In this document: piece after piece, positions 43,240-63,550 of the stretch
Position numbering within the stretch: position 1 is the first letter of the stretch
How the letters are laid out: every line of letters begins with the position of its first letter
From: a virus
Taxonomy: Duplodnaviria > Caudoviricetes
Reading direction: 5' to 3' (one strand)
Length of the DNA: 64,000 nt
Virus record (IMG/VR): IMGVR_UViG_2862421350_000002
Span: 1 to 64,000 of that record
Program-made: the position numbers and the translations under genes
The notes under the pieces: model-generated
Databases searched by the model: none
The model's input: the letters and a program-made list of their open reading frames with translations, nothing else
Told to the model about the DNA's origin: nothing

Positions 43240-43279
43240 CTGTCCTATAGTTTTGCGACTTTAATAACGTGATCTTGCT
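43240..43279 (+). repeat. 40-bp inverted repeat, left copy
   Basis: CTGTCCTATAGTTTTGCGACTTTAATAACGTGATCTTGCT; 39/40 match to the reverse complement of 55190-55229. Confidence 0.95.
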
Positions 43280-43444
43280 CAGATCTCCGGCCACGCTCCG
43301 CCGCTCATCGGCAATCCCCGGGTTACCGCAAAGCCGCTGGTCAGAACGGATTGTCAGTGGTCCCGTCTACCGTGGATTGGGTACGGACTGCCGGGAAGCC
43401 ACGGGGCTTCGGGAGCACGTCAGTCCCTGGCCCGGGGAGGCCGC

Positions 43445-44736: not shown

Positions 44737-45176
44737 GCAGACCAAGGTAGCGCTTCTTGGTTGGCATTCATAGTCACTTTTCAAGAATGTGGGGCGGTCG
44801 GGGGCAGCAACTCGCCCCATCGGGCGCACCCTTGAACCATGAGCACTGACTCGACTCCCCGCGAGGTCGAGGCGCCCAGCCCCGACGACACCGCGCACCC
44901 CGGCGAACCACCCGACCCGCCGGAGCGGCCGCGCGAACCGGGCGCCCGGCCGGCCCCGCTGTCCCGGCTGCTGTTCCCGTGACGCGGATGCTGGGCGCCT
45001 GGTCGTCGCCGTGGTGCCCGTACTGTCGTGGCCCGGCGGGGGTGGACTGCCCGGACCGGTCGTGGTCGAAGAAGCAGCAGCGGGCGCGGGAGGAACGGGC
45101 CTGGCGGCGGGAACTTTTCCAATTCCCCCTCTACACTATTAAGGTCGACGAAATGTAAAGGGTGGGGCACAGCATC

Positions 45177-46076
45177 ATGCCGCGAGCGCTGACCGATGAG
45201 CAGGTCGAGGAAGTCCGCGCCCTGTACGCCCAAGGGGTCAGGACCGTAGAGATCGCTGAGCGGTACGGCGTTTCCCGCCCCACCGTCCTCAAGGCCGTCC
45301 CTGCGGAGGAACGGCGGCCGCGAGGCCCATGGAAGCCGTTCACGGAAGCCGAGGAGGTGGTCGCGAAGTACCGGAGCGGTCAGACCATCGTTGCCCTCGC
45401 CGAGGCATACGGCGTCGACACGACGAAGATCCGCCGGATTCTCATAGATGCTGGCGTCGAGAGGCGGCCCGCTAAGCCCCCTGCGCTTGACCTGCCAGCG
45501 AAGGAGATCGCCGACGCCTATCGCTCGGGTAAGACACTTCGCGCGATCGCCGCCGTCTACGGCGTTACTCCTGACCCGATCCGGCGTGTGCTGGCCGAGC
45601 AGGGCGTGGAGACGAGGTCGACCGGGTACGCCCCCTCGCTCAGCAGCGAGCAGAAGGAGGAGGCCCGCAGGCTGCGCGAGCAAGGTGCCAGCACCCTCGA
45701 ACTCGCGGAACGGTTCAGTGTGTCGCGAGCCGTCATGCAGGCAGCCGTTCGAGGTGTCCGAGGTCCCAACTCGGGCGAGAAGACTCGTCAGACAGACGCC
45801 GAGATCGTTGCCGCCTACGAACGAGGGGTAAGCATCCAGGAGCTAGCGCGCCGCAATGGAATGGCTCACCCCACCGTTACCAAGGTACTGAAGGACGCAG
45901 GTGTGGCGCTCCGTGGACGTGGCGCTCCTCGAAAAGGCCTGCCGGAGCACGAGATCCTTGAGAGAGCCAATTCGGGTGAGAAGCTGACTGATCTGGCCAA
46001 GGCGTACGGCATCAGCGATCCGACCCTCCGGCGCGTGCTCCGGGAGGGCGGGTTCCGCTTTCAGCGCTCCCGTTGA
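45177..46076 (+). CDS. Protein of six tandem HTH repeats
   Basis: Six ~50-aa units of the form Y..G.T...(I/L)A..YGV....I...L...GV. Confidence 0.85.
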   Translation: MPRALTDEQVEEVRALYAQGVRTVEIAERYGVSRPTVLKAVPAEERRPRGPWKPFTEAEEVVAKYRSGQTIVALAEAYGVDTTKIRRILIDAGVERRPAKPPALDLPAKEIADAYRSGKTLRAIAAVYGVTPDPIRRVLAEQGVETRSTGYAPSLSSEQKEEARRLREQGASTLELAERFSVSRAVMQAAVRGVRGPNSGEKTRQTDAEIVAAYERGVSIQELARRNGMAHPTVTKVLKDAGVALRGRGAPRKGLPEHEILERANSGEKLTDLAKAYGISDPTLRRVLREGGFRFQRSR

Positions 46077-46197
46077 GCCTGGCCGCGAATCGGGGCGATC
46101 CTTAGGATCGCGCACACAGCAGAAACGGCGGCGACCTCCGGATGCGGACCCGCGATAAGCTCACTTGCGTCCACTTAGCCTGATTCGTGAGGGTTCC

Positions 46198-46473
46198 ATG
46201 GTCCAGCACGCTGCTACGTGCCCGCTCTACCCGACTCACTGGCTCCGGTTCGCCGTGGCCACGACCGGACTCCTCCTCCAGGACCCGCCCGACCCGGGCG
46301 GAGACCGGATCTCGGCGATGATGCTGACCGACGCGCTCGCCCACCTTGCCGAGCTCCCGAATTGGGAGACCGTCACCCTGAAGGATGTCGTGGACCAGGT
46401 GGACTGGGTGGAGAGTTCTCCCAACCGCGAGTGGCTGCGGTCGCAGTGCACCTGCGGAGCTCTGGACGGCTGA
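46198..46473 (+). CDS. Hypothetical protein
   Basis: H..TCP N-terminus and CTCG C-terminus; GAGGG RBS. Confidence 0.55.
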   Translation: MVQHAATCPLYPTHWLRFAVATTGLLLQDPPDPGGDRISAMMLTDALAHLAELPNWETVTLKDVVDQVDWVESSPNREWLRSQCTCGALDG

Positions 46474-46514
46474 GCCAGCGTCGCACCTGAGCAGGCGGAC
46501 CGTTGCGTCTCACC

Positions 46515-46537
46515 TCGGATAACCTTTCGTTATCCGA
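46515..46537. promoter_or_regulatory. lox-like palindromic recombination/operator site
   Basis: TCGGATAA-CCTTTCG-TTATCCGA directly upstream of the recombinase. Confidence 0.75.
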
Positions 46538-46554
46538 TCACTCAGGAGGATCGC

Positions 46555-47616
46555 GTGGGAAACGCCCCCGCACCCATCCCGGAGTCCGACGAGGCGCTCA
46601 CGCTCCGCTGGGCCGAACGACACGGCGTCGACACTGCCCGCCGGCTGGTCGACGCGGAGAACCTCGCCGACGCAGTTGCGCGCGAGATCACCCCCGACAA
46701 CACGATCGACACCTACGCCAAGTCCTGGCGCGTGTGGAAACGGTTCTGCGTGTCCCAGAACTTCCCCCTCACCGAAGGAACCCGCGGCTCCCTCGTCGCC
46801 TTCGCCGTCTGGATGCTCCGCGAGGGCCGACAGGACGGCACCGGCTACGCACCCACCGCCGCCAAGACCCACCTGGCGGCCACCGCTGTGGGGTTGCGCC
46901 AGCGGGGCCACCCGGTGAGCAAGGACGTATTTGCTGAAGCCCGCGACGCCCTCGACGGCCTGGCCGTGCAACTCCTCAAGGCGGGTGAACGTCGGGGCCG
47001 CGGCAAGGCAGTGGCCGCCAGCGTCGATGGGTTGAGCATGATTGTCCGCGCCTGCCCGCCCGACCTGACCGGGCTCAGGGACAAGGCCCTCGTGCTCACC
47101 GGCTTCAACTTCGCCTCGCGCGCCTCCGAACCGGCAGGACTGCTGGCCGGTGACATCACGGTGCAGCCGCGCGGCATGGTCGTCTCCGTCCTCACCGGCA
47201 AAACGCGGTACTCCGTACGGGAAGCGAAGATCCCGTACTCGCAGACACCTGAACTCTGCCCGGTACGGGCTTGGATCGCCTACCGCGAGCAGCTCGTCGC
47301 CGAGCACGGGTCGAAGTGGGCCGCCCCCTCCACGCCGGCCTTCGTCGCCATCAGCCGCTGGGGAAAGGTAACGGGAGGCCTCGGTCCGGACGGCGTCACC
47401 CGTGCCATCAAGCGGATCTCCGCCCGCGCCCAGGTCCCGATCGTCTGGACCGGCCACTCTCTGCGCGCCGGCCTCGCGACCGAGGGACGCAGGAAGGGCA
47501 AGGACGCTGTCTCCATCTCCCGCCAGGGTGGATGGGCTCCCAACAGCCGCGAGATGCTCGGGTACATGCGAACGGCTGACGAATGGGACGACAATGCCTC
47601 CGCGGGACTGACCTGA
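46555..47616 (+). CDS. Cre-like tyrosine recombinase
   Basis: SRASE, GKT, GHSLRAG, QGGW, MLGY: full R-K-H-R-W-Y set. Confidence 0.93.
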   Translation: MGNAPAPIPESDEALTLRWAERHGVDTARRLVDAENLADAVAREITPDNTIDTYAKSWRVWKRFCVSQNFPLTEGTRGSLVAFAVWMLREGRQDGTGYAPTAAKTHLAATAVGLRQRGHPVSKDVFAEARDALDGLAVQLLKAGERRGRGKAVAASVDGLSMIVRACPPDLTGLRDKALVLTGFNFASRASEPAGLLAGDITVQPRGMVVSVLTGKTRYSVREAKIPYSQTPELCPVRAWIAYREQLVAEHGSKWAAPSTPAFVAISRWGKVTGGLGPDGVTRAIKRISARAQVPIVWTGHSLRAGLATEGRRKGKDAVSISRQGGWAPNSREMLGYMRTADEWDDNASAGLT

Positions 47617-48722
47617 TGCCTACGAGTGGAGCCGACGTGACCCCGAAGGTGTACGAGGCGGCGTCGGTGCGGCAGCTGTCCGCGGTGGTGGACGGCATGA
47701 CCGGCACGGTGTCCGACAGCCGACTGCGGCAGTTGCGGATGGTCGTCGGCATGTTCGACCGGGCGGTGGGCCGGGACGAGATGCCGGGCAGGGCGTCCCG
47801 GTCAGCAGCCCAGTTGTTCACGTGGGCGGCGCTACGCCCGTTCTGGGAGCTGGCGGCCGCCGGGGAACTGCGGCATTGGGAGAAGGACATCGGGAAACCG
47901 CTGCCGGTGACCACGCTGCGGGTGGTGCGGAACTGCTTGGAGGTTCTGGCTGGCCGGGTGCTGCCTGCGGGTCGGCGGGTGCGGTTGCCGGAGCTGGAGG
48001 CGCCTGTGCTGAAGTCGACGGTGGATGACCGGTCGTTGGCCGCCTTGTATCGGGGGATGGTGGATCTGGCGGCGACAGGGCCGTTGGTGCGGGACGGGAC
48101 GGCCCTGTCGCCGGAAGACCGGGCGCGGACGTTGGCGATGGTGGCGGTGCTGCTGGATGCGGGGCTGCGGTCGGGGGAGATGGCCGCGCAGACGTTGTCG
48201 GACCTGGCACCGGGGGTGGCGGCGGTGGGGGTGCGCCGGCGGGCCCAGCGGCGGGACGAGGCTCGGGCCGGGGAGGTTGCCGCGGTGACAGGGCTGCACC
48301 CGTCGACCGTGACGAAGGTGTTGTCCGGGTTGGGGCATGACCGGTCGTTGGCGACGGAGGCCCGGGTCCTGGAGGCTGCCGCGGCGTTGCCGCCGGTGCC
48401 GGAGGTGGAGTGGTTCGAGCTGCGGGAGGGGTCCCGGGTGGCGGTGCGCCGGTGGCTGGCCGTGCGGGAGCTGCTGGTGTCGGAGGATGTGCCGTTGACG
48501 GGGCAGCGGACAGCGTTGTGGGTGACGTTGACGCCGTCGAAGGCGGGGCCGATCGGGATCCCGCTGCGTCCACAGGGGCTCAGGCAGGCGTATGCGCGGG
48601 GGATCACGGCGTTGAACTGGGTGATGGCCGCGTCGCATGGGTGGGAGCCGTTGCCGACGACGATGGAGCAGGTGCGCCGGTCGGTGGACGTGGTGCCGCT
48701 GCTGGACCCGCCCGGGGTGTGA
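47616..48722 (+). CDS. Degenerate tyrosine-recombinase-fold protein with inserted LacI-like HTH
   Basis: LLDAGLRSGE box I; EVAAVTGLHPSTVTKVLSG; no HxxR and no terminal Tyr. Confidence 0.7.
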   Translation: MPTSGADVTPKVYEAASVRQLSAVVDGMTGTVSDSRLRQLRMVVGMFDRAVGRDEMPGRASRSAAQLFTWAALRPFWELAAAGELRHWEKDIGKPLPVTTLRVVRNCLEVLAGRVLPAGRRVRLPELEAPVLKSTVDDRSLAALYRGMVDLAATGPLVRDGTALSPEDRARTLAMVAVLLDAGLRSGEMAAQTLSDLAPGVAAVGVRRRAQRRDEARAGEVAAVTGLHPSTVTKVLSGLGHDRSLATEARVLEAAAALPPVPEVEWFELREGSRVAVRRWLAVRELLVSEDVPLTGQRTALWVTLTPSKAGPIGIPLRPQGLRQAYARGITALNWVMAASHGWEPLPTTMEQVRRSVDVVPLLDPPGV

Positions 48723-48727
48723 GCGGG

Positions 48728-48934
48728 TCAGGTGCCGGGGATGGTGTCCTGGTCGACTTCGTGGGGTGCGGCGGCTTGTGGCCGGCGGGCGGGATCGCAG
48801 TCCGGCCCCCATCCGTTCAGGCGTGAGCTGAGCGCGGTCAGCGGGCGTCCGCAGCGTCGGCAGTACCGGTGTCGGTAGCCGGTTGCGGGGTCGTTGATGA
48901 GGGTGGGCTGCTGGTTCCGGTGGGTGCGGGCCAT
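48728..48934 (-). CDS. DUF6011-like zinc-finger protein
   Basis: CRRCGRPLT..S...GWGPDC. Confidence 0.8.
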   Translation of the reverse strand: MARTHRNQQPTLINDPATGYRHRYCRRCGRPLTALSSRLNGWGPDCDPARRPQAAAPHEVDQDTIPGT

Positions 48935-49041: not shown

Positions 49042-49325
49042 CCTTCGGCGTTCACGGGGTCAGGCGGCCCGGTGGAGTGCGAGGCAGTCCGGGCACCAGC
49101 GCTCGTTCTCCTTCACCAGCCGGACCGGCACGTCCTGCTTCGGCCCGGGCGCTACGATCCCCTCTTCCTTGCTGCACGCGATGGGGTGGAAGTCGCATTC
49201 CCCGGTGCACCGGTGGCCGGGGGCGGGCTTGTGCCAGACGGTCTGGTCGGGGGTGCGGCCGTAGCCGGGGACACGTTCCGAGACGGCGAGCATGGCTTCT
49301 CCTTCGGCGTTCACGGGGTCAGGCG
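49042..49325. repeat. 25-bp perfect direct repeat at 49042-49066 and 49301-49325
   Basis: CCTTCGGCGTTCACGGGGTCAGGCG twice. Confidence 0.92.
49060..49293 (-). CDS. Small Cys/His protein
   Basis: AAGGAG RBS; WH..C..WCPDC. Confidence 0.65.
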   Translation of the reverse strand: MLAVSERVPGYGRTPDQTVWHKPAPGHRCTGECDFHPIACSKEEGIVAPGPKQDVPVRLVKENERWCPDCLALHRAA

Positions 49326-49606
49326 CCCCGAGTGGCGCTGGCGTCCTGCGCGGCAACACGGAGGCGGGCATATCGCAGGGGCGACTTGGCCTGGAAGAAG
49401 TGGCCGCGACGGTACTCCCGAACCTGCTCCCCGCCCTCATCGGTCAGGGCCAGGTAGCTGATGGAGCCGTAGGCGCTGAAGAGCCGGATGGCGGCCTCTT
49501 CGGCTGCCGACTCGCTCTCAACCGGGCGGGGCTCGATGTGGGGTGTCGGGTACTGCTGGTGCCGTCCGTCGCGGATGCCGCCGGTCATGGGGTGCAGGGT
49601 GAGCAT
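49319..49606 (-). CDS. Hypothetical protein
   Basis: AAGGAG RBS; MLTLHPMTGG. Confidence 0.65.
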   Translation of the reverse strand: MLTLHPMTGGIRDGRHQQYPTPHIEPRPVESESAAEEAAIRLFSAYGSISYLALTDEGGEQVREYRRGHFFQAKSPLRYARLRVAAQDASATRGA

Positions 49607-49616
49607 GGTGTTCTCC

Positions 49617-50015
49617 TTATGCGGCGAGGCTGGTGTGAGTCTGGTCGATGCGGCGGCTCGGGAGGTAGTCCCGGCCGAGTTCGCGGGCGATGAGTTGTGC
49701 GGGGCTACGCACCACGATGACCGCACCCGCCGGGGTCGTTGCCTCCGGGCGGTCCAGGACGAACGCCATGCGGTGCAGGGTGTAGCTGACGATCTTGTGG
49801 ACCAGGAAGCCCCGGGCCTCTCCCCGGAGGCGGCACATGGCGCGGACCTCGATGCGGCCGGACTTCGTGGTGCGGATGTCATACGGCTCGATCGTCCGGA
49901 TGGACTCGGTGCCGTCCTGGTCGAGGTAGGTGATGGTGACGGCTTCGGCGCGGTCCAGGGCTCGGTACAGGTCGGTGAGGGTCTTGGTGCTGGTCTGCTG
50001 GTTGGTGTGTCGCAT
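49617..50015 (-). CDS. Stand-alone WYL-domain protein
   Basis: ITYLDQDG..SIRTIEPY..AMCRLRGEARGF...KI. Confidence 0.85.
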   Translation of the reverse strand: MRHTNQQTSTKTLTDLYRALDRAEAVTITYLDQDGTESIRTIEPYDIRTTKSGRIEVRAMCRLRGEARGFLVHKIVSYTLHRMAFVLDRPEATTPAGAVIVVRSPAQLIARELGRDYLPSRRIDQTHTSLAA

Positions 50016-50047: not shown

Positions 50048-50093
50048 ACAGTACCTATATTCCATGGCGTACGCAATAGGAATGGGGTACGGT
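50048..50093. promoter_or_regulatory. Overlapping divergent promoters and operator
   Basis: TTGCGT-17-TACTGT (minus) and TGGCGT-17-TACGGT (plus) centred on GCGTACGC. Confidence 0.75.
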
Positions 50094-50171
50094 GGTCACA
50101 CCAGGAACCGCCTGGAGTACCCGCAAGCCCAACAGCTGTGGCGTACGCACTACAAAAAGGAGGACACTGGC

Positions 50172-50762
50172 GTGGCACACACCCCCATCACGCGCCCGCC
50201 TGGCCGCCCCCGGTCCGATCGGCGCGCGTCGCCGAGAGGACCCCGCCCCGTGGCACTCCGCCCCGAAGACCAGAAGCGCGTCAACGACCTCACCGAAGCC
50301 GCCCAGCACCTCCGTACCACCGGTGCCCCACAGCTCGCGGACAGCGTTGACTACGTCCTGTCCATGGACGGTCTCGCGTTCATCGGCCGACTGAGGTTGG
50401 AGCGCATGCACACGCAGGCCGCCGAGGGTGACCTCGACCCGAACCTGCCGATGGCGATGCCGCGCCCCGTCCGGGACCAGATCAAGTCGACGGCCCGTCA
50501 GCAGGGTCGGGATTTGACAGCGGAGGCGCACAAGGCGCTGGAGGAGTTTTGCGCTGGCCGGTTCACTCCGGACCGCCCGGTTCGCGCCGCACATGGTTCG
50601 GGCGAGGTGAAGGTGAACCTGAATCTTCGGGTTAACGCCGACCTGCGGGCCCGGGCGGAGAAGCACGGTAAGGACGTGGCCGCCGAGCTGGGCTGGGCGC
50701 CGCGCGCTTCGCATGTCATCACTGGCTGGCTGATCCGGGAGTTCACCGGGGCCAGTAGGTAG
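50172..50762 (+). CDS. Tandem ribbon-helix-helix regulator, putative repressor
   Basis: NLPMAMPRPVRDQIK and VNLNLRVNADLRARA; AAGGAGG RBS. Confidence 0.7.
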   Translation: MAHTPITRPPGRPRSDRRASPRGPRPVALRPEDQKRVNDLTEAAQHLRTTGAPQLADSVDYVLSMDGLAFIGRLRLERMHTQAAEGDLDPNLPMAMPRPVRDQIKSTARQQGRDLTAEAHKALEEFCAGRFTPDRPVRAAHGSGEVKVNLNLRVNADLRARAEKHGKDVAAELGWAPRASHVITGWLIREFTGASR

Positions 50763-50842: not shown

Positions 50843-51838
50843 ATGGCCACGGCCACCGAGGCCCCCGCCAGCGTCACGGCGGAGGGCCCCACCTCGCACA
50901 CCCAAAACCAGGCAGTCCCCAGCATCTACCAGCTCATGGCCCTGGTCATGCGCGACGTCCGCGACGTCGGCAAGAACGGCTTCAACGACCACCAGAAGTA
51001 CAAGTTCCGTGGTGTCGACGACTTCATCGGCGCCCTCGCCCAGCCGCTCCGTGACCACGGCGTGTTCATGATGACGGAGATCCTCGACTTCCAGACCTCG
51101 GTCCGCGGAAAGATGAACGCCGTCCACATGCGGGTCGCGTTCCACTTCCACGGCCCGGCCGGCGACAAGGTCACCACCAGCACCCTGGGCGAGGCGTCCG
51201 ACACGGCGGACAAGGCGTCGAACAAGGCAATGTCCGCGGCGCTGAAGTACGCCCTGATGCAGACGTTCATGATCCCGGTCGACGCAGGGTCGCTCGACGA
51301 CGGAGACCGGGACCACCCAGTGGGCCAGCGGTCACCGGCGGACGCGTACCTGGAGCGGCTGCGGAAGCCCACGGTGTGGAACAACGTGACGGCGCTGACC
51401 GCGATGCACGCGGAGGCGAAGGGTGACGGCCTCTTGGGTTCGGCGGTGCAGGGCCCGGATGGGGAGACGACGCTTGGGGATCTGATCGTGTCCCGCGGCC
51501 GGCAGCTCAAGGACGAGTTGGCGGCCCGGGAGGAGCGCCAGGCGCAGGAGGCTCCGGTGGCGGCCGCGCAGGTGGCTGCCGAGCACGGTGCTGGCCCGGA
51601 CCCGATCGACAACCTCGTCGGCCAGGTGCAGCGCGGGTGGAACGACGCCACGGAGCTCACGAAGGTCCTTGCGGAGGCGGGGCGCCGAAATCAGCTGCTC
51701 CGGGAGGTCGACGGTCCGACCGGCGGCATGGTCCAGTTCGGCGACATGGTGACGGCCCGCGTACAGGAGCTCAAGGAGCAGGCTCGGCAGGCCGAGCGGA
51801 ACGGGCACACCGACACCCACGAGAGGAGCGCCGCCTGA
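50843..51838 (+). CDS. erf: ERF-family ssDNA annealing protein
   Basis: YKFRGVDD, GEASDTADKASNKAMSAALKYAL. Confidence 0.9.
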   Translation: MATATEAPASVTAEGPTSHTQNQAVPSIYQLMALVMRDVRDVGKNGFNDHQKYKFRGVDDFIGALAQPLRDHGVFMMTEILDFQTSVRGKMNAVHMRVAFHFHGPAGDKVTTSTLGEASDTADKASNKAMSAALKYALMQTFMIPVDAGSLDDGDRDHPVGQRSPADAYLERLRKPTVWNNVTALTAMHAEAKGDGLLGSAVQGPDGETTLGDLIVSRGRQLKDELAAREERQAQEAPVAAAQVAAEHGAGPDPIDNLVGQVQRGWNDATELTKVLAEAGRRNQLLREVDGPTGGMVQFGDMVTARVQELKEQARQAERNGHTDTHERSAA

Positions 51839-55171: not shown

Positions 55172-55189
55172 GGGGTACCGGGGAAGCTC

Positions 55190-55229
55190 AGCAAGATCAC
55201 GTTATTAAAGTCGCAAAAGTATAGGACAG
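55190..55229 (-). repeat. 40-bp inverted repeat, right copy
   Basis: AGCAAGATCACGTTATTAAAGTCGCAAAAGTATAGGACAG. Confidence 0.95.
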
Positions 55230-58487: not shown

Positions 58488-59248
58488 CCCAGCCGAAGAC
58501 GGCTGCCGGGGCGGACCTCGCCCGCCAGGCCCTCGCCGCCTACAAAGCCACCGCACCCAGACAAGGCGCCCCCAAACCCCGCCACCGCGCCCGGCGTGCA
58601 AACCGAGGCGCCGGCCGCGACCCCGTCGGCCTCAGCGGACTCCTCGGCCACCTCAACACCGAACAAGGCTGGGAACTCTCCCTCTCCGCCGGAAGCATCA
58701 CCGACCGGTGGGCCGCCCTGTGCCCCGAACTCGTCGGCCACGTCGAACCTGTCGCCTACGACCCCGACCGAGGACGCCTCGACCTCCGCCCCGCCACCCA
58801 TGCCTACGCCGCCCACCTCCGCCTCCTCGGCGGACAGATCGCCAAGCGCATCAACGACCAGCTCGGCCGCCAGGTCGTCCGCACCATCCGGCCCCTGCCC
58901 GTCGGCCCCATCACCGCCACCCCCGCGGCGGCCGCGCCCGGCCGACCCACCGTGCAACGCCCCATCCGCACCCGGGACACAGCGTGCGACGGGTACAAGG
59001 AAGCCCTCGCCGCGATCCGCCGAGCCGAGAAGCCCACGGTCAACCCGAAGGCCGCTGCGGCGATCGAGCGGCAGAACCAGGCGATGGCCCGCGAGCCCGA
59101 GGGCCAGTTCGCCGACGCCGTTGTCGCGGCCGAGGAAGCAGCCGGCCCGCAGCTGTCCGACTCCGAACGCGCCCGCCAAGCCGCCATCGCCCACAAGCAC
59201 ACCGGCGGCCACACCGCGCCCGTACGACGCGTCTTCGACGTCGCCTGA
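58484..59248 (+). CDS. dciA: DciA/DUF721 helicase-loader-like protein
   Basis: RDPVGL..GW..RW...LVGHVEP..AYAAHLRLL..I..RIN..LG..VVRTI. Confidence 0.82.
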   Translation: MTQPKTAAGADLARQALAAYKATAPRQGAPKPRHRARRANRGAGRDPVGLSGLLGHLNTEQGWELSLSAGSITDRWAALCPELVGHVEPVAYDPDRGRLDLRPATHAYAAHLRLLGGQIAKRINDQLGRQVVRTIRPLPVGPITATPAAAAPGRPTVQRPIRTRDTACDGYKEALAAIRRAEKPTVNPKAAAAIERQNQAMAREPEGQFADAVVAAEEAAGPQLSDSERARQAAIAHKHTGGHTAPVRRVFDVA

Positions 59249-59268
59249 GTTTTACGGCCGTAAAACTC
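59247..59268. promoter_or_regulatory. parS-like palindrome, copy 1
   Basis: Perfect 22-bp GAGTTTTACGGCCGTAAAACTC upstream of parA. Confidence 0.8.
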
Positions 59269-60095: not shown

Positions 60096-61240
60096 TGGCG
60101 ATGAACCCCAACGAGTTCGACGACTTCCTCGAGGACGACGACGCCCCCGACCACGTCATCGACACCCGGGCCGACGGCCGGCTCCTCCGTGTCCCCCTCG
60201 GCCGCATCTCGCCGAACCTCGTGAACCCGCGGAAAGACTTCGGCACCGAAGACGACCTCAAGGACTTCGGGCGCAGCCTGAAGCGCCGACAAATCCAGGC
60301 CGTCCCCGTCGTGACCCGCAAGGCGTACCTCAACCTCTGGCCCGACCACAAAGACGGAATCGGCAACGTCGACGTCGTCATCGTCAGCGGGGAGCGCCGC
60401 TACCGCGGAGCCAGCGCCGTAGACCTGCCGGCGCTCGAGTGCGTCATCAACGACGGGTACGCCGAGTCCCGCAAGACGTTCCTCGACGCGGTCGTCTCGG
60501 AGAACATCGACCGGCAGAACTTCGACGCCATCGAGGAAGCCAACGCCGTCGAGGTCCTCGTCGAAGCGTTCGGCACCGCCCGGGCAGTGGCCGAGCACTA
60601 CGAACGGGTCGACGGCTGGGTATCGCAACGCCGGATCCTGCTCCGCCTCGCCCCCGAAGCGCAGGAGCTCGTGCGCCGCCAGAGCATGCCGCTCGACGCG
60701 GCACGCAAGCTCGGCAAGCTCGTCAAGGACTACCAGTGGTCCGCCTCGGACCAGTTGCAGTGGTGGGAGGACGAACAGCAGGAGCGAGCGAAGAAGGCGG
60801 CGGCGAAGAAGGCGGCCCGCGCTGCGGAGCGAAAGGCCGCCGCTCAGGCCGCTCCGATGCCACCGAGTTTTACGGCCGTAAAACCGGTTGGTGTGGCACC
60901 GGCCCCGGACCCGGGCATTCCGCAGCGCGTCGAGCCGGAGCAGAGCAGCCCCGCCCCGACACCGGACCCGGCCCCGGCCGCTCTTCCGGTTCAACGGGAG
61001 ACGGCACCCTCGCCGACTCCAACACCATCAGAGGCCCCACTCAACGTTGCCACGCCCGCAGTGAGACCGACAGGACCCATTCGGCAGTCCGTAGCCGCTG
61101 AGCCCTCTGTCCGGGTGCAGCAGCTGCCGACGCACGACTGGCAGCAGCTCGCGGACATCGTCATCGCCGAACTCCCCCGAGCAGCACTGCAAAACCTGAC
61201 CGAGCGACTCCTCGAGGCGGCTACAAGCCGTTCCGCCTGA
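60095..61240 (+). CDS. parB: Partition protein (CTPase type)
   Basis: NPRKDF, GERRYR, ENIDRQN, HTH. Confidence 0.95.
   Translation: MAMNPNEFDDFLEDDDAPDHVIDTRADGRLLRVPLGRISPNLVNPRKDFGTEDDLKDFGRSLKRRQIQAVPVVTRKAYLNLWPDHKDGIGNVDVVIVSGERRYRGASAVDLPALECVINDGYAESRKTFLDAVVSENIDRQNFDAIEEANAVEVLVEAFGTARAVAEHYERVDGWVSQRRILLRLAPEAQELVRRQSMPLDAARKLGKLVKDYQWSASDQLQWWEDEQQERAKKAAAKKAARAAERKAAAQAAPMPPSFTAVKPVGVAPAPDPGIPQRVEPEQSSPAPTPDPAPAALPVQRETAPSPTPTPSEAPLNVATPAVRPTGPIRQSVAAEPSVRVQQLPTHDWQQLADIVIAELPRAALQNLTERLLEAATSRSA
60865..60884. promoter_or_regulatory. parS-like palindrome, copy 2 (inside parB)
   Basis: GAGTTTTACGGCCGTAAAAC. Confidence 0.8.
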
Positions 61241-63517: not shown

Positions 63518-63550
63518 CGTATTGCATAGCAATACGAGAATGGGTACTGT
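63518..63550 (+). promoter_or_regulatory. Promoter with palindromic operator
   Basis: CGTATTGC-ATA-GCAATACG; TTGCAT-17-TACTGT. Confidence 0.75.

Follow-up and report, generated by a model that had tools for sequence, protein, structure and literature searches.

A predicted non-catalytic tyrosine-recombinase relative with an inserted LacI-type head, encoded behind a Cre-like recombinase in a Streptomyces plasmid-prophage: a candidate DNA-binding regulator

Phage repressors built on a dead integrase fold were recognised only in 2023–2025, in Bacillus phages. As described in the sections of the two reports that deal with them, MrpR (YopR) and SroF repress SPbeta-type phages via asymmetric AT-rich boxes (PMC10516654; bioRxiv paper). 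MrpR, from SPbeta, looks like a tyrosine recombinase that no longer recombines, and its target is a repeated element (PMC10516654); by Table 3 of that paper it keeps the Lys and the Tyr and is without Arg-I, His and Trp. SroF of phage phi3T, acting as a monomer, closes around an asymmetric AT-rich box of 26 bp (bioRxiv paper). Here we describe a gene pair from a pZL12-type plasmid-prophage of Streptomyces, in which a predicted Cre-like tyrosine recombinase (open reading frame 1, ORF1) is followed by ORF2, a second protein of the same fold that is probably catalytically dead and that carries a LacI-type DNA-binding head. The window, that is, the whole stretch of DNA analysed, comprises 64 kb (positions 1 to 64,000, G+C about 69%) of IMG/VR record IMGVR_UViG_2862421350_000002, a virus record of 86,709 bases that has direct terminal repeats and is rated complete. 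The two genes lie in an early or maintenance region, flanked by the structural operon and by genes for WYL-domain, Arc-like and ERF recombinase proteins. A literature search for a described family like ORF2 returned, supplements aside, only the work on MrpR and SroF. The features that concern the pair itself are as follows.

46555–47616, plus strand: ORF1, predicted intact Cre-like tyrosine recombinase, 353 aa, identified through Pfam, PHROGs, PDB sequence matches and Foldseek
47616–48722, plus strand: ORF2, predicted catalytically inactive protein with a tyrosine-recombinase fold, 368 aa when read from the ATG at 47616
48252–48386, plus strand: predicted three-helix LacI-type headpiece, ORF2 residues 213–257 (whole insert about 212–262), between beta2 and beta3

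The reading to which we lean, by a modest degree, is that ORF2 binds specific DNA sequences without catalysis and serves as a regulator or architectural protein for the maintenance functions or backbone of the plasmid-prophage; that it is an obligatory subunit of this Cre-like enzyme appears less likely. As a regulator, ORF2 would bind DNA without cutting it. One segment of DNA would be held by its recombinase clamp while the grafted head recognised the bases next to it, giving a longer sequence read, and the protein would act in the manner of MrpR and SroF, the repressors with a dead integrase fold.

ORF2 has 173 relatives at E <= 0.001 and, in a separate search, 109 representative clusters; conservation was scored in a set of 39 close homologs (55–89% identity) and in a diverse family set of 33 sequences. 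The AlphaFold2 (AF2) model of ORF2, built on the 39 homologs, has a predicted local distance difference test (pLDDT) score of 85.2. With Foldseek this model matches XerA best (E 2e-4, probability 1.00), then the Tn1549 integrase (Int), XerH, IntI and Cre, and VIA-align gives Z scores of 11.6 for XerA, 11.4 for XerH, 10.9 for Cre and 10.7 for Tn1549 Int. Matches to full-length recombinases (Z 10.5–11.6) cover ORF2 residues 12–363, equal to the core-binding and catalytic domains together, and the C-terminal catalytic domain of XerD matches with Z 11.0 and a root-mean-square deviation (rmsd) of 3.5 Å over 146 residues. Judged by the model, then, ORF2 keeps the two-domain recombinase fold. The Pfam recombinase profile PF00589 (cut-off 27.1 bits) gave no match on ORF2 itself at E <= 1. 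Because an insertless relative, P0140, passes the PF00589 threshold with 33.6 bits, the descent of the ORF2 family from tyrosine recombinases is well supported by sequence comparison. The accessory modules of the family differ, being an inserted head in some members, a C-terminal HTH_7 (helix-turn-helix, HTH) in P0124 and a C-terminal Cys-rich tail at locus L041, and this variability fits a DNA-recognition job for the family. Some homologs are named ‘LacI family DNA-binding transcriptional regulator’ by the Prokaryotic Genome Annotation Pipeline (PGAP); this name and the PGAP name ‘tyrosine-type recombinase/integrase’, also found among the relatives, are both misleading.

The active site of ORF2 is partly kept and partly lost. 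Box I (LLDAGLRSGE) is present, as the first-pass annotation of this DNA had stated from the sequence, with R185 and E188 invariant in 39/39 close homologs and R185 kept in 29 of the 33 diverse sequences. W343, at the His/Trp position, occurs in all 39 close and 31 of 33 diverse relatives; together with R354 (33/33 diverse) it forms part of a family-wide conserved C-terminal motif. The earlier observation that the protein ends with no Tyr nucleophile extends to the family, as no Tyr lies within 25 residues past W343 in any of the 39 close homologs or in 30 of the 33 diverse ones. The beta2-beta3 hairpin reads RRRxQ, followed by the HTH insert or by a short loop, and has a Lys in 1/33 sequences. 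At the HxxR-equivalent, a variable site that is placed by motif spacing only at Q320-G-L-R323, His is absent and Arg is found in 28/39 close and 11/33 diverse sequences. This site is more likely the counterpart of HxLR than the EQVRR that the first-pass annotation had put there, for EQVRR corresponds to residues 351–355, lies 8–12 residues past W343 and occupies the Tyr helix. Applying the nine-residue Trp-to-Tyr spacing of Cre puts the nucleophile position at Q352 of ORF2; Y337 of ORF1 aligns with the neighbouring V353, in a C-terminal alignment that is not significant alone (123 of 500 shuffles scored as high). With Tyr nucleophile, hairpin Lys and His all missing there is no complete active site, which agrees with the earlier description of ORF2 as probably dead, and from this we infer that ORF2 is unable to cut DNA.

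In Cre-type enzymes the hairpin that bears the Lys packs against the DNA close to where it is cut. In the model of ORF2, the head appears as a clean domain graft at the tip of this beta2-beta3 hairpin position, its helices (213–225, 229–237 and 245–257) being flanked by strands at 203–207 and 264–268. Placement near the catalytic Lys hairpin had been proposed from the sequence and is in keeping both with these strands and, weakly, with a profile-profile comparison of the ORF1 and ORF2 families by hhalign, which sets the K216 hairpin of ORF1 at the insert position but in which a faint match at box I (E 0.22) was all that emerged. The identity of the insert, noted earlier as a LacI-like HTH at about 48270–48390, is likewise sustained. 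A search of the PDB with the ORF2 family profile found the headpieces of Cra/FruR/LacI/CytR (best E 7e-4), precomputed PF00356 assignments are present on 20 of the 120 homologs listed, and model residues 210–263 superpose on the heads of CcpA and RbsR with Z 6.0–6.3 and rmsd 2.4–2.8 Å over 45–48 residues at 26–30% identity. PF00356 gave no match at E <= 1 on the ORF2 protein of the window alone. The three-helix head is thus alike in sequence and structure to that of LacI/GalR regulators; in those proteins, however, it is N-terminal, whereas in ORF2 it is internal and comes without the periplasmic-binding-protein-like effector and dimerisation core. An insert of about 45 residues is carried by 4 of the 33 diverse relatives, and the other 29 have a short hairpin loop. 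In a tree made without the insert columns the four insert-bearing sequences share a clade of 10 (support 0.98) with six insertless ones, among which they are interspersed. In ORF2 the LacI head is predicted to take the very place at which the catalytic Lys hairpin meets the DNA.

Compared with MrpR and SroF, ORF2 has the same two-domain tyrosine-recombinase fold, the same predicted loss of catalysis and the same setting in a temperate phage, and structures of the two Bacillus proteins are among its matches (9rd5 Z 10.2, 9rgl 9.9, 8bpz 7.9). MrpR and SroF have no inserted HTH and belong to a Bacillus host, whereas ORF2, a candidate repressor, has the insert and a Streptomyces host. ORF2 keeps Arg-I, Glu and Trp and is without Lys, His and Tyr, and MrpR has decayed in different residues. 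Because the catalytic residues that decayed differ between MrpR/SroF and ORF2, the likeness looks convergent. By analogy, a ‘repressor’ role for ORF2 is a live option. The first-pass annotation had spoken of a retooled accessory or directionality factor, or a repressor; the retooled dead recombinase with a DNA-binding head stands, and SroF/YopR are found among its structural matches, but a dedicated partner does not emerge from the data. If it is true that ORF2 is such a regulator, the idea of dead integrase-fold regulators would extend to a family present in 41 of 301 sampled Streptomyces-genus genomes, or about one in seven. A broader proposal, which we regard as rather doubtful when taken as a whole, is that the ORF2 family represents a second, independent origin of the integrase-fold DNA-clamp regulator, in Actinobacteria, in which the head lengthens the DNA read; in pZL12-type elements it would be a maintenance or lysogeny switch gating the neighbouring recombinase, and the chromosomal copies would be domesticated regulators. 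Were ORF2 indeed such a switch, the keeping of an upstream recombinase of any lineage would be explained.

The cassette of ORF1 is made up of the following features.

46515–46537, no strand assigned: perfect palindrome, 9-5-9 (or 8-7-8), 18 nt upstream of ORF1; candidate lox-like core site or operator
45111–47627, plus strand: replaced cassette containing a multi-HTH gene, a small ORF, the palindrome and ORF1, with no DNA homology to the closest relatives
46165–46473: small ORF within the replaced cassette, upstream of ORF1

The description of ORF1 as an intact Cre-like enzyme, already given in the first-pass annotation, is well founded. Its R189, K216, H301, R304, W327 and Y337 are invariant in 31/31 aligned sequences, and a phmmer alignment matches H301, R304, W327 and Y337 to their catalytic counterparts in Cre, numbered as in Table 3 of the MrpR paper (PMC10516654). 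The resulting R-K-H-R-W-Y set has Trp in the fifth position, like Cre. ORF1 scores 26.7 bits with PF00589, slightly below the cut-off, and is assigned to the integrase families phrog_216 and phrog_1 of PHROGs. All 17 matches in a PDB sequence search are to Cre or the Cre-derived Tre (E 0.003–0.05). The AF2 model of ORF1 is mediocre (pLDDT 66.4, with the C-terminus below 50), and in Foldseek Cre or Tre fills every listed row to rank 30 (E 9e-8 to 4e-5), Xer proteins appearing only from E 3e-4. The best sequence and fold matches are therefore both to Cre of phage P1, at about 15–19% identity over the Foldseek alignments. On this basis ORF1 is a complete, intact Cre-like tyrosine recombinase whose activity is predicted.

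The palindrome upstream of ORF1 has one exact copy in the window, and 9 of 100 shuffles gave one match at <=3 mismatches. The same arms, with a different pyrimidine-rich spacer, stand upstream of the ORF1-type integrase at loci L043, L044 and L045 (3/3), so that the candidate site is kept with the ORF1-type gene in 4/4 cassettes. No copy of it turned up ahead of the other recombinase types that stand in front of ORF2 relatives. We also considered the palindrome as a LacI-type operator of ORF2 and rejected this, as it is absent before other recombinases and present in plasmids that have no ORF2 relative. The palindrome thus belongs to ORF1 and travels with ORF1-type integrases, not with ORF2, and its identical arms would suit a homodimer of one protein rather than an ORF1/ORF2 heterodimer. 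The loxP site has a 13-8-13 arrangement. Cre-loxP and the ORF1 cassette both have an inverted-repeat site beside the gene, yet the site of ORF1, with 9-nt arms and a 5-nt spacer (or 8-7-8), is arranged differently from loxP. The pZL12 abstract is said to compare this type of plasmid-prophage with P1. As a compact Cre-like cassette, ORF1 with its palindrome may be useful for Streptomyces genetics.

When the region was compared by blastn with the loci L002, L004 and L001, homology ended at about 45110 and restarted at 47628 (L002, L004) or at 47708 (L001). The restart at 47628 is 12 nt into ORF2, and the ORF2 genes of the closest relatives are 90% and 80% identical at the DNA level. ORF1 and its palindrome are a portable cassette, and ORF2 is a conserved gene of the shared plasmid-prophage backbone. 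At the left end of the cassette lies the multi-HTH gene (45162–46076, plus strand), whose 304-aa product consists nearly entirely of repeated resolvase-type HTH (HTH_7, E 2e-27, matched in several stretches); this protein could be an accessory DNA binder for ORF1. The small ORF upstream of ORF1 was considered as a conserved accessory gene and rejected, since the copy in the window is unrelated to the small ORFs of L043 and L045, which are themselves weakly alike (28% identity, E 3e-5).

At the junction of the two genes the TGA of ORF1 (47614–47616) and an ATG (47616–47618) form the sequence TGATG, from which an overlap of ORF1 and ORF2 had been proposed. The TGATG is there, but the likelier start of ORF2 is the GTG at 47637, which yields a protein of 361 aa. 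Because NCBI homologs begin at MTPK, corresponding to GTG 47637, and a GGAG (47627–47630) precedes that codon, a 20-nt gap is likelier than an overlap. The gene call of the source itself begins at residue 12.

Linkage between ORF2 relatives and recombinases was counted in flanks of 1.5–6 kb with two custom recombinase profiles and Pfam spot checks. Thirty-four insert-bearing loci were examined, three of which had too little upstream sequence, leaving 31 that were informative. A same-strand tyrosine recombinase lies directly upstream in 21 of these (17 Cre-like, 4 XerC/D-like), and no tyrosine recombinase lies within 6 kb in the other 10, which shows that insert-bearing homologs do occur unlinked to a Cre-like gene. 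Where solo loci were scanned with Pfam (L021, L025, L026, L029, L031, L033, L034), the neighbours were all of housekeeping types: short-chain dehydrogenases, methylmalonyl-CoA mutase, a TetR regulator, an ABC permease, an MFS transporter and aldehyde dehydrogenase. A further 32 loci from Streptomyces-genus genomes, with 1.5-kb flanks, gave five with a same-strand recombinase upstream, one divergent, one with a weak match and 25 with none; two of these 25 have a ParA gene upstream. Viewed from the side of ORF1, its closest relatives (68–79% identity) have no ORF2-like gene downstream in 3/3 plasmids examined. By profile search, two of these three plasmid records are without any ORF2-family member, and the third (56 kb) has one that is 8.5 kb away from its integrase and is preceded by parA and a small ORF. 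ORF1 and ORF2 thus look like genes that often stand together but need not do so. Of the ‘coupled pair’ that the first-pass annotation had seen, the frequent upstream recombinase remains; the 10 unlinked loci, the occurrence of the ORF1 cassette without ORF2 and the mosaic boundary between the two genes speak against the coupling.

In several relatives (L001, L002, L016, L020, L024, L041, L042) an endonuclease VII gene lies beside the recombinase and the ORF2 relative or between them, and at L002 an RNase H gene is similarly placed; RNase H is absent from the cassette of this genome. Counted near the pair, the endonuclease VII gene is found in 5/36 loci (pZL12, L002, L016, L020 and L024) and is absent from this whole genome. 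On this distribution we set aside the idea that recombination with a dead partner stops at a Holliday junction, which endonuclease VII would then resolve. A longer ORF2 subfamily (about 425–435 aa, with a C-terminal extension) occurs on other Streptomyces plasmids, immediately after parA and a small ORF, at L047 (NZ_CP108656.1 28530–31186), L058 and L059.

A second candidate site is an AT-rich repeat.

43240–43282, plus strand: AT-rich 43-nt repeat, copy 1, probably the ‘40-bp repeat’ of the first-pass annotation
55187–55229, minus strand: AT-rich 43-nt repeat, copy 2, inverted, 11.9 kb from copy 1

The 43-mer is present as two inverted copies, 95% complementary, in the whole 86,709-base genome. 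The element is not palindromic, and its copies bracket a 12-kb early or maintenance region. It is also found in eight related plasmids at 87.5–95.5% identity, with two copies in 6/8. In the seven of these that are of pZL12 size, the 43-mer is 92–95.5% identical, yet the ORF2 relatives are 46–90% identical and two of them are without the head. Since a site and the protein that reads it should vary together, this argues, on weak evidence, against the 43-mer being read by ORF2. As a promoter the 43-mer was rejected as well, neither copy having a sigma-70-like match. The earlier suggestion that ORF2 redirects the Cre-like enzyme to the 40-bp repeats is not sustained, given that the ORF1 cassette occurs without ORF2 and the 43-mer does not track ORF2.

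Several observations weigh against a free-standing regulator. The first is the linkage itself: the 21 loci with a recombinase directly upstream, the frequent 4-nt overlap between that recombinase and the ORF2 relative (L002, L041) and the 0–20 nt gap in the window. The upstream recombinases are about 30–39% identical to ORF1, while the ORF2 relatives are 55–90% identical, and the fact that the neighbourhood outlives a change of recombinase lineage suggests that the two are functionally connected. Neither candidate motif goes with ORF2, as the palindrome follows ORF1 and the 43-mer is stable across ORF2 relatives of 46–90% identity. In structure ORF2 is no closer to SroF and YopR (Z 10.2 and 7.9) than to true recombinases (Z 10–11.6), and MrpR and SroF are not among the PDB sequence matches of the ORF2 family profile, so that the likeness would be functional only. 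Other regulator candidates, the WYL and Arc-like proteins, are encoded nearby. Finally, Zhong et al. (2010) reportedly mapped the repA of pZL12, and pZL12.34c might be that gene; the pZL12 GenBank record carries no repA or tra labels in positions 1–32,629 and 60,000–90,435.

The linkage would be best served if ORF2 were the non-catalytic partner of whichever tyrosine recombinase lies upstream, setting direction, resolution selectivity or target choice by joining the synapse or by binding accessory DNA beside the core site. We consider this possible, though distinctly the lesser prospect. It is the sole reading that explains why adjacency outlasts the replacement of the recombinase by other lineages; it would also give a use to the pocket residues R185, E188 and W343 that ORF2 keeps, and the related plasmid pSLE1 has two putative integrase genes, according to the account of its genes in the pSLE1 paper. 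The same replacement, however, makes a specific interface unlikely, in view of the gap between 30–39% identity among the recombinases and 55–90% among the ORF2 relatives. The ORF1 cassette is found elsewhere without ORF2, family members also stand alone or behind parA, and the endonuclease VII that might finish a half-reaction is rare near the pair and lacking here. XerC and XerD are both catalytic and act on a site whose two half-sites differ. ORF1 and ORF2 recall that pair in being two same-fold genes, adjacent and co-oriented, but are unlike it in that one partner is predicted to be dead, the partner is exchangeable and the sole nearby site has identical arms, which is not what a heteromeric site with two different half-sites would present. 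The parA contexts raise another explanation, namely that the family consists of DNA-binding proteins for plasmid maintenance, linked to partition or to multimer control and acting near a centromere or resolution site, with the prophage copy keeping that role. parA and a small ORF directly precede the family member at L047, a ParA gene is upstream at L058 and L059, and in pZL12-type plasmids the gene adjoins a putative resolution recombinase. These are nevertheless the only three parA contexts seen, the ORF2 of this genome is not beside par genes, no centromere-like repeats were found beside it, and chromosomal solo copies sit among housekeeping genes; a partition role is accordingly judged unlikely.

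The loss of catalytic residues could also mean that ORF2 is a decaying, functionless relic of a duplicated recombinase gene. This is very improbable, for the frame is open with a third-position G+C content (GC3) of 0.90, 44 columns are invariant among the 39 homologs despite identities of 55–89%, the C-terminal motif is conserved (W343 in 31/33, R354 in 33/33), and the family recurs in 41 of the 301 sampled genomes. It is barely credible, in turn, that ORF2 is still an enzyme with another nucleophile: a phosphate might still be held by R185, E188, W343 and the conserved Arg residues 354 and 355, but the nucleophile position and its surroundings have no conserved Tyr, Ser or Thr (T348 and T349 are variable), and Lys and His are missing too. 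ORF2 as a defence gene was rejected for want of PADLOC matches.

Downstream of ORF2 the following genes were noted.

48728–48934, minus strand: DUF6011 gene
49617–50015, minus strand: WYL-domain gene
50064–50762, plus strand: Arc-like gene
50843–51838, plus strand: ERF recombinase gene

The WYL and Arc-like genes point away from each other, with 49 nt of AT-rich DNA between them, and are an alternative candidate for the lysogeny switch. In the same downstream region a 30-nt direct repeat occurs at 49042–49071 and 49301–49330 (97% identical, 259 nt apart); copy 1 overlaps the end of a minus-strand gene at 49060–49440 and copy 2 lies inside that gene. Elsewhere in the record, a perfect palindrome of 16–22 nt around TTTTACGGCCGTAAAA has copies at 59247–59268 and 60865–60886 and is a possible centromere or operator. 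The 13-nt AT-rich word CGTATTGCATAGC is found three times in AT-rich intergenic DNA, at 63518 in the window and at genome positions 69404 and 84402 outside it, as a candidate operator set. At 2259–2438 there are three direct copies of a 32-nt unit, with spacings of 81 and 67 nt, in an iteron-like layout.

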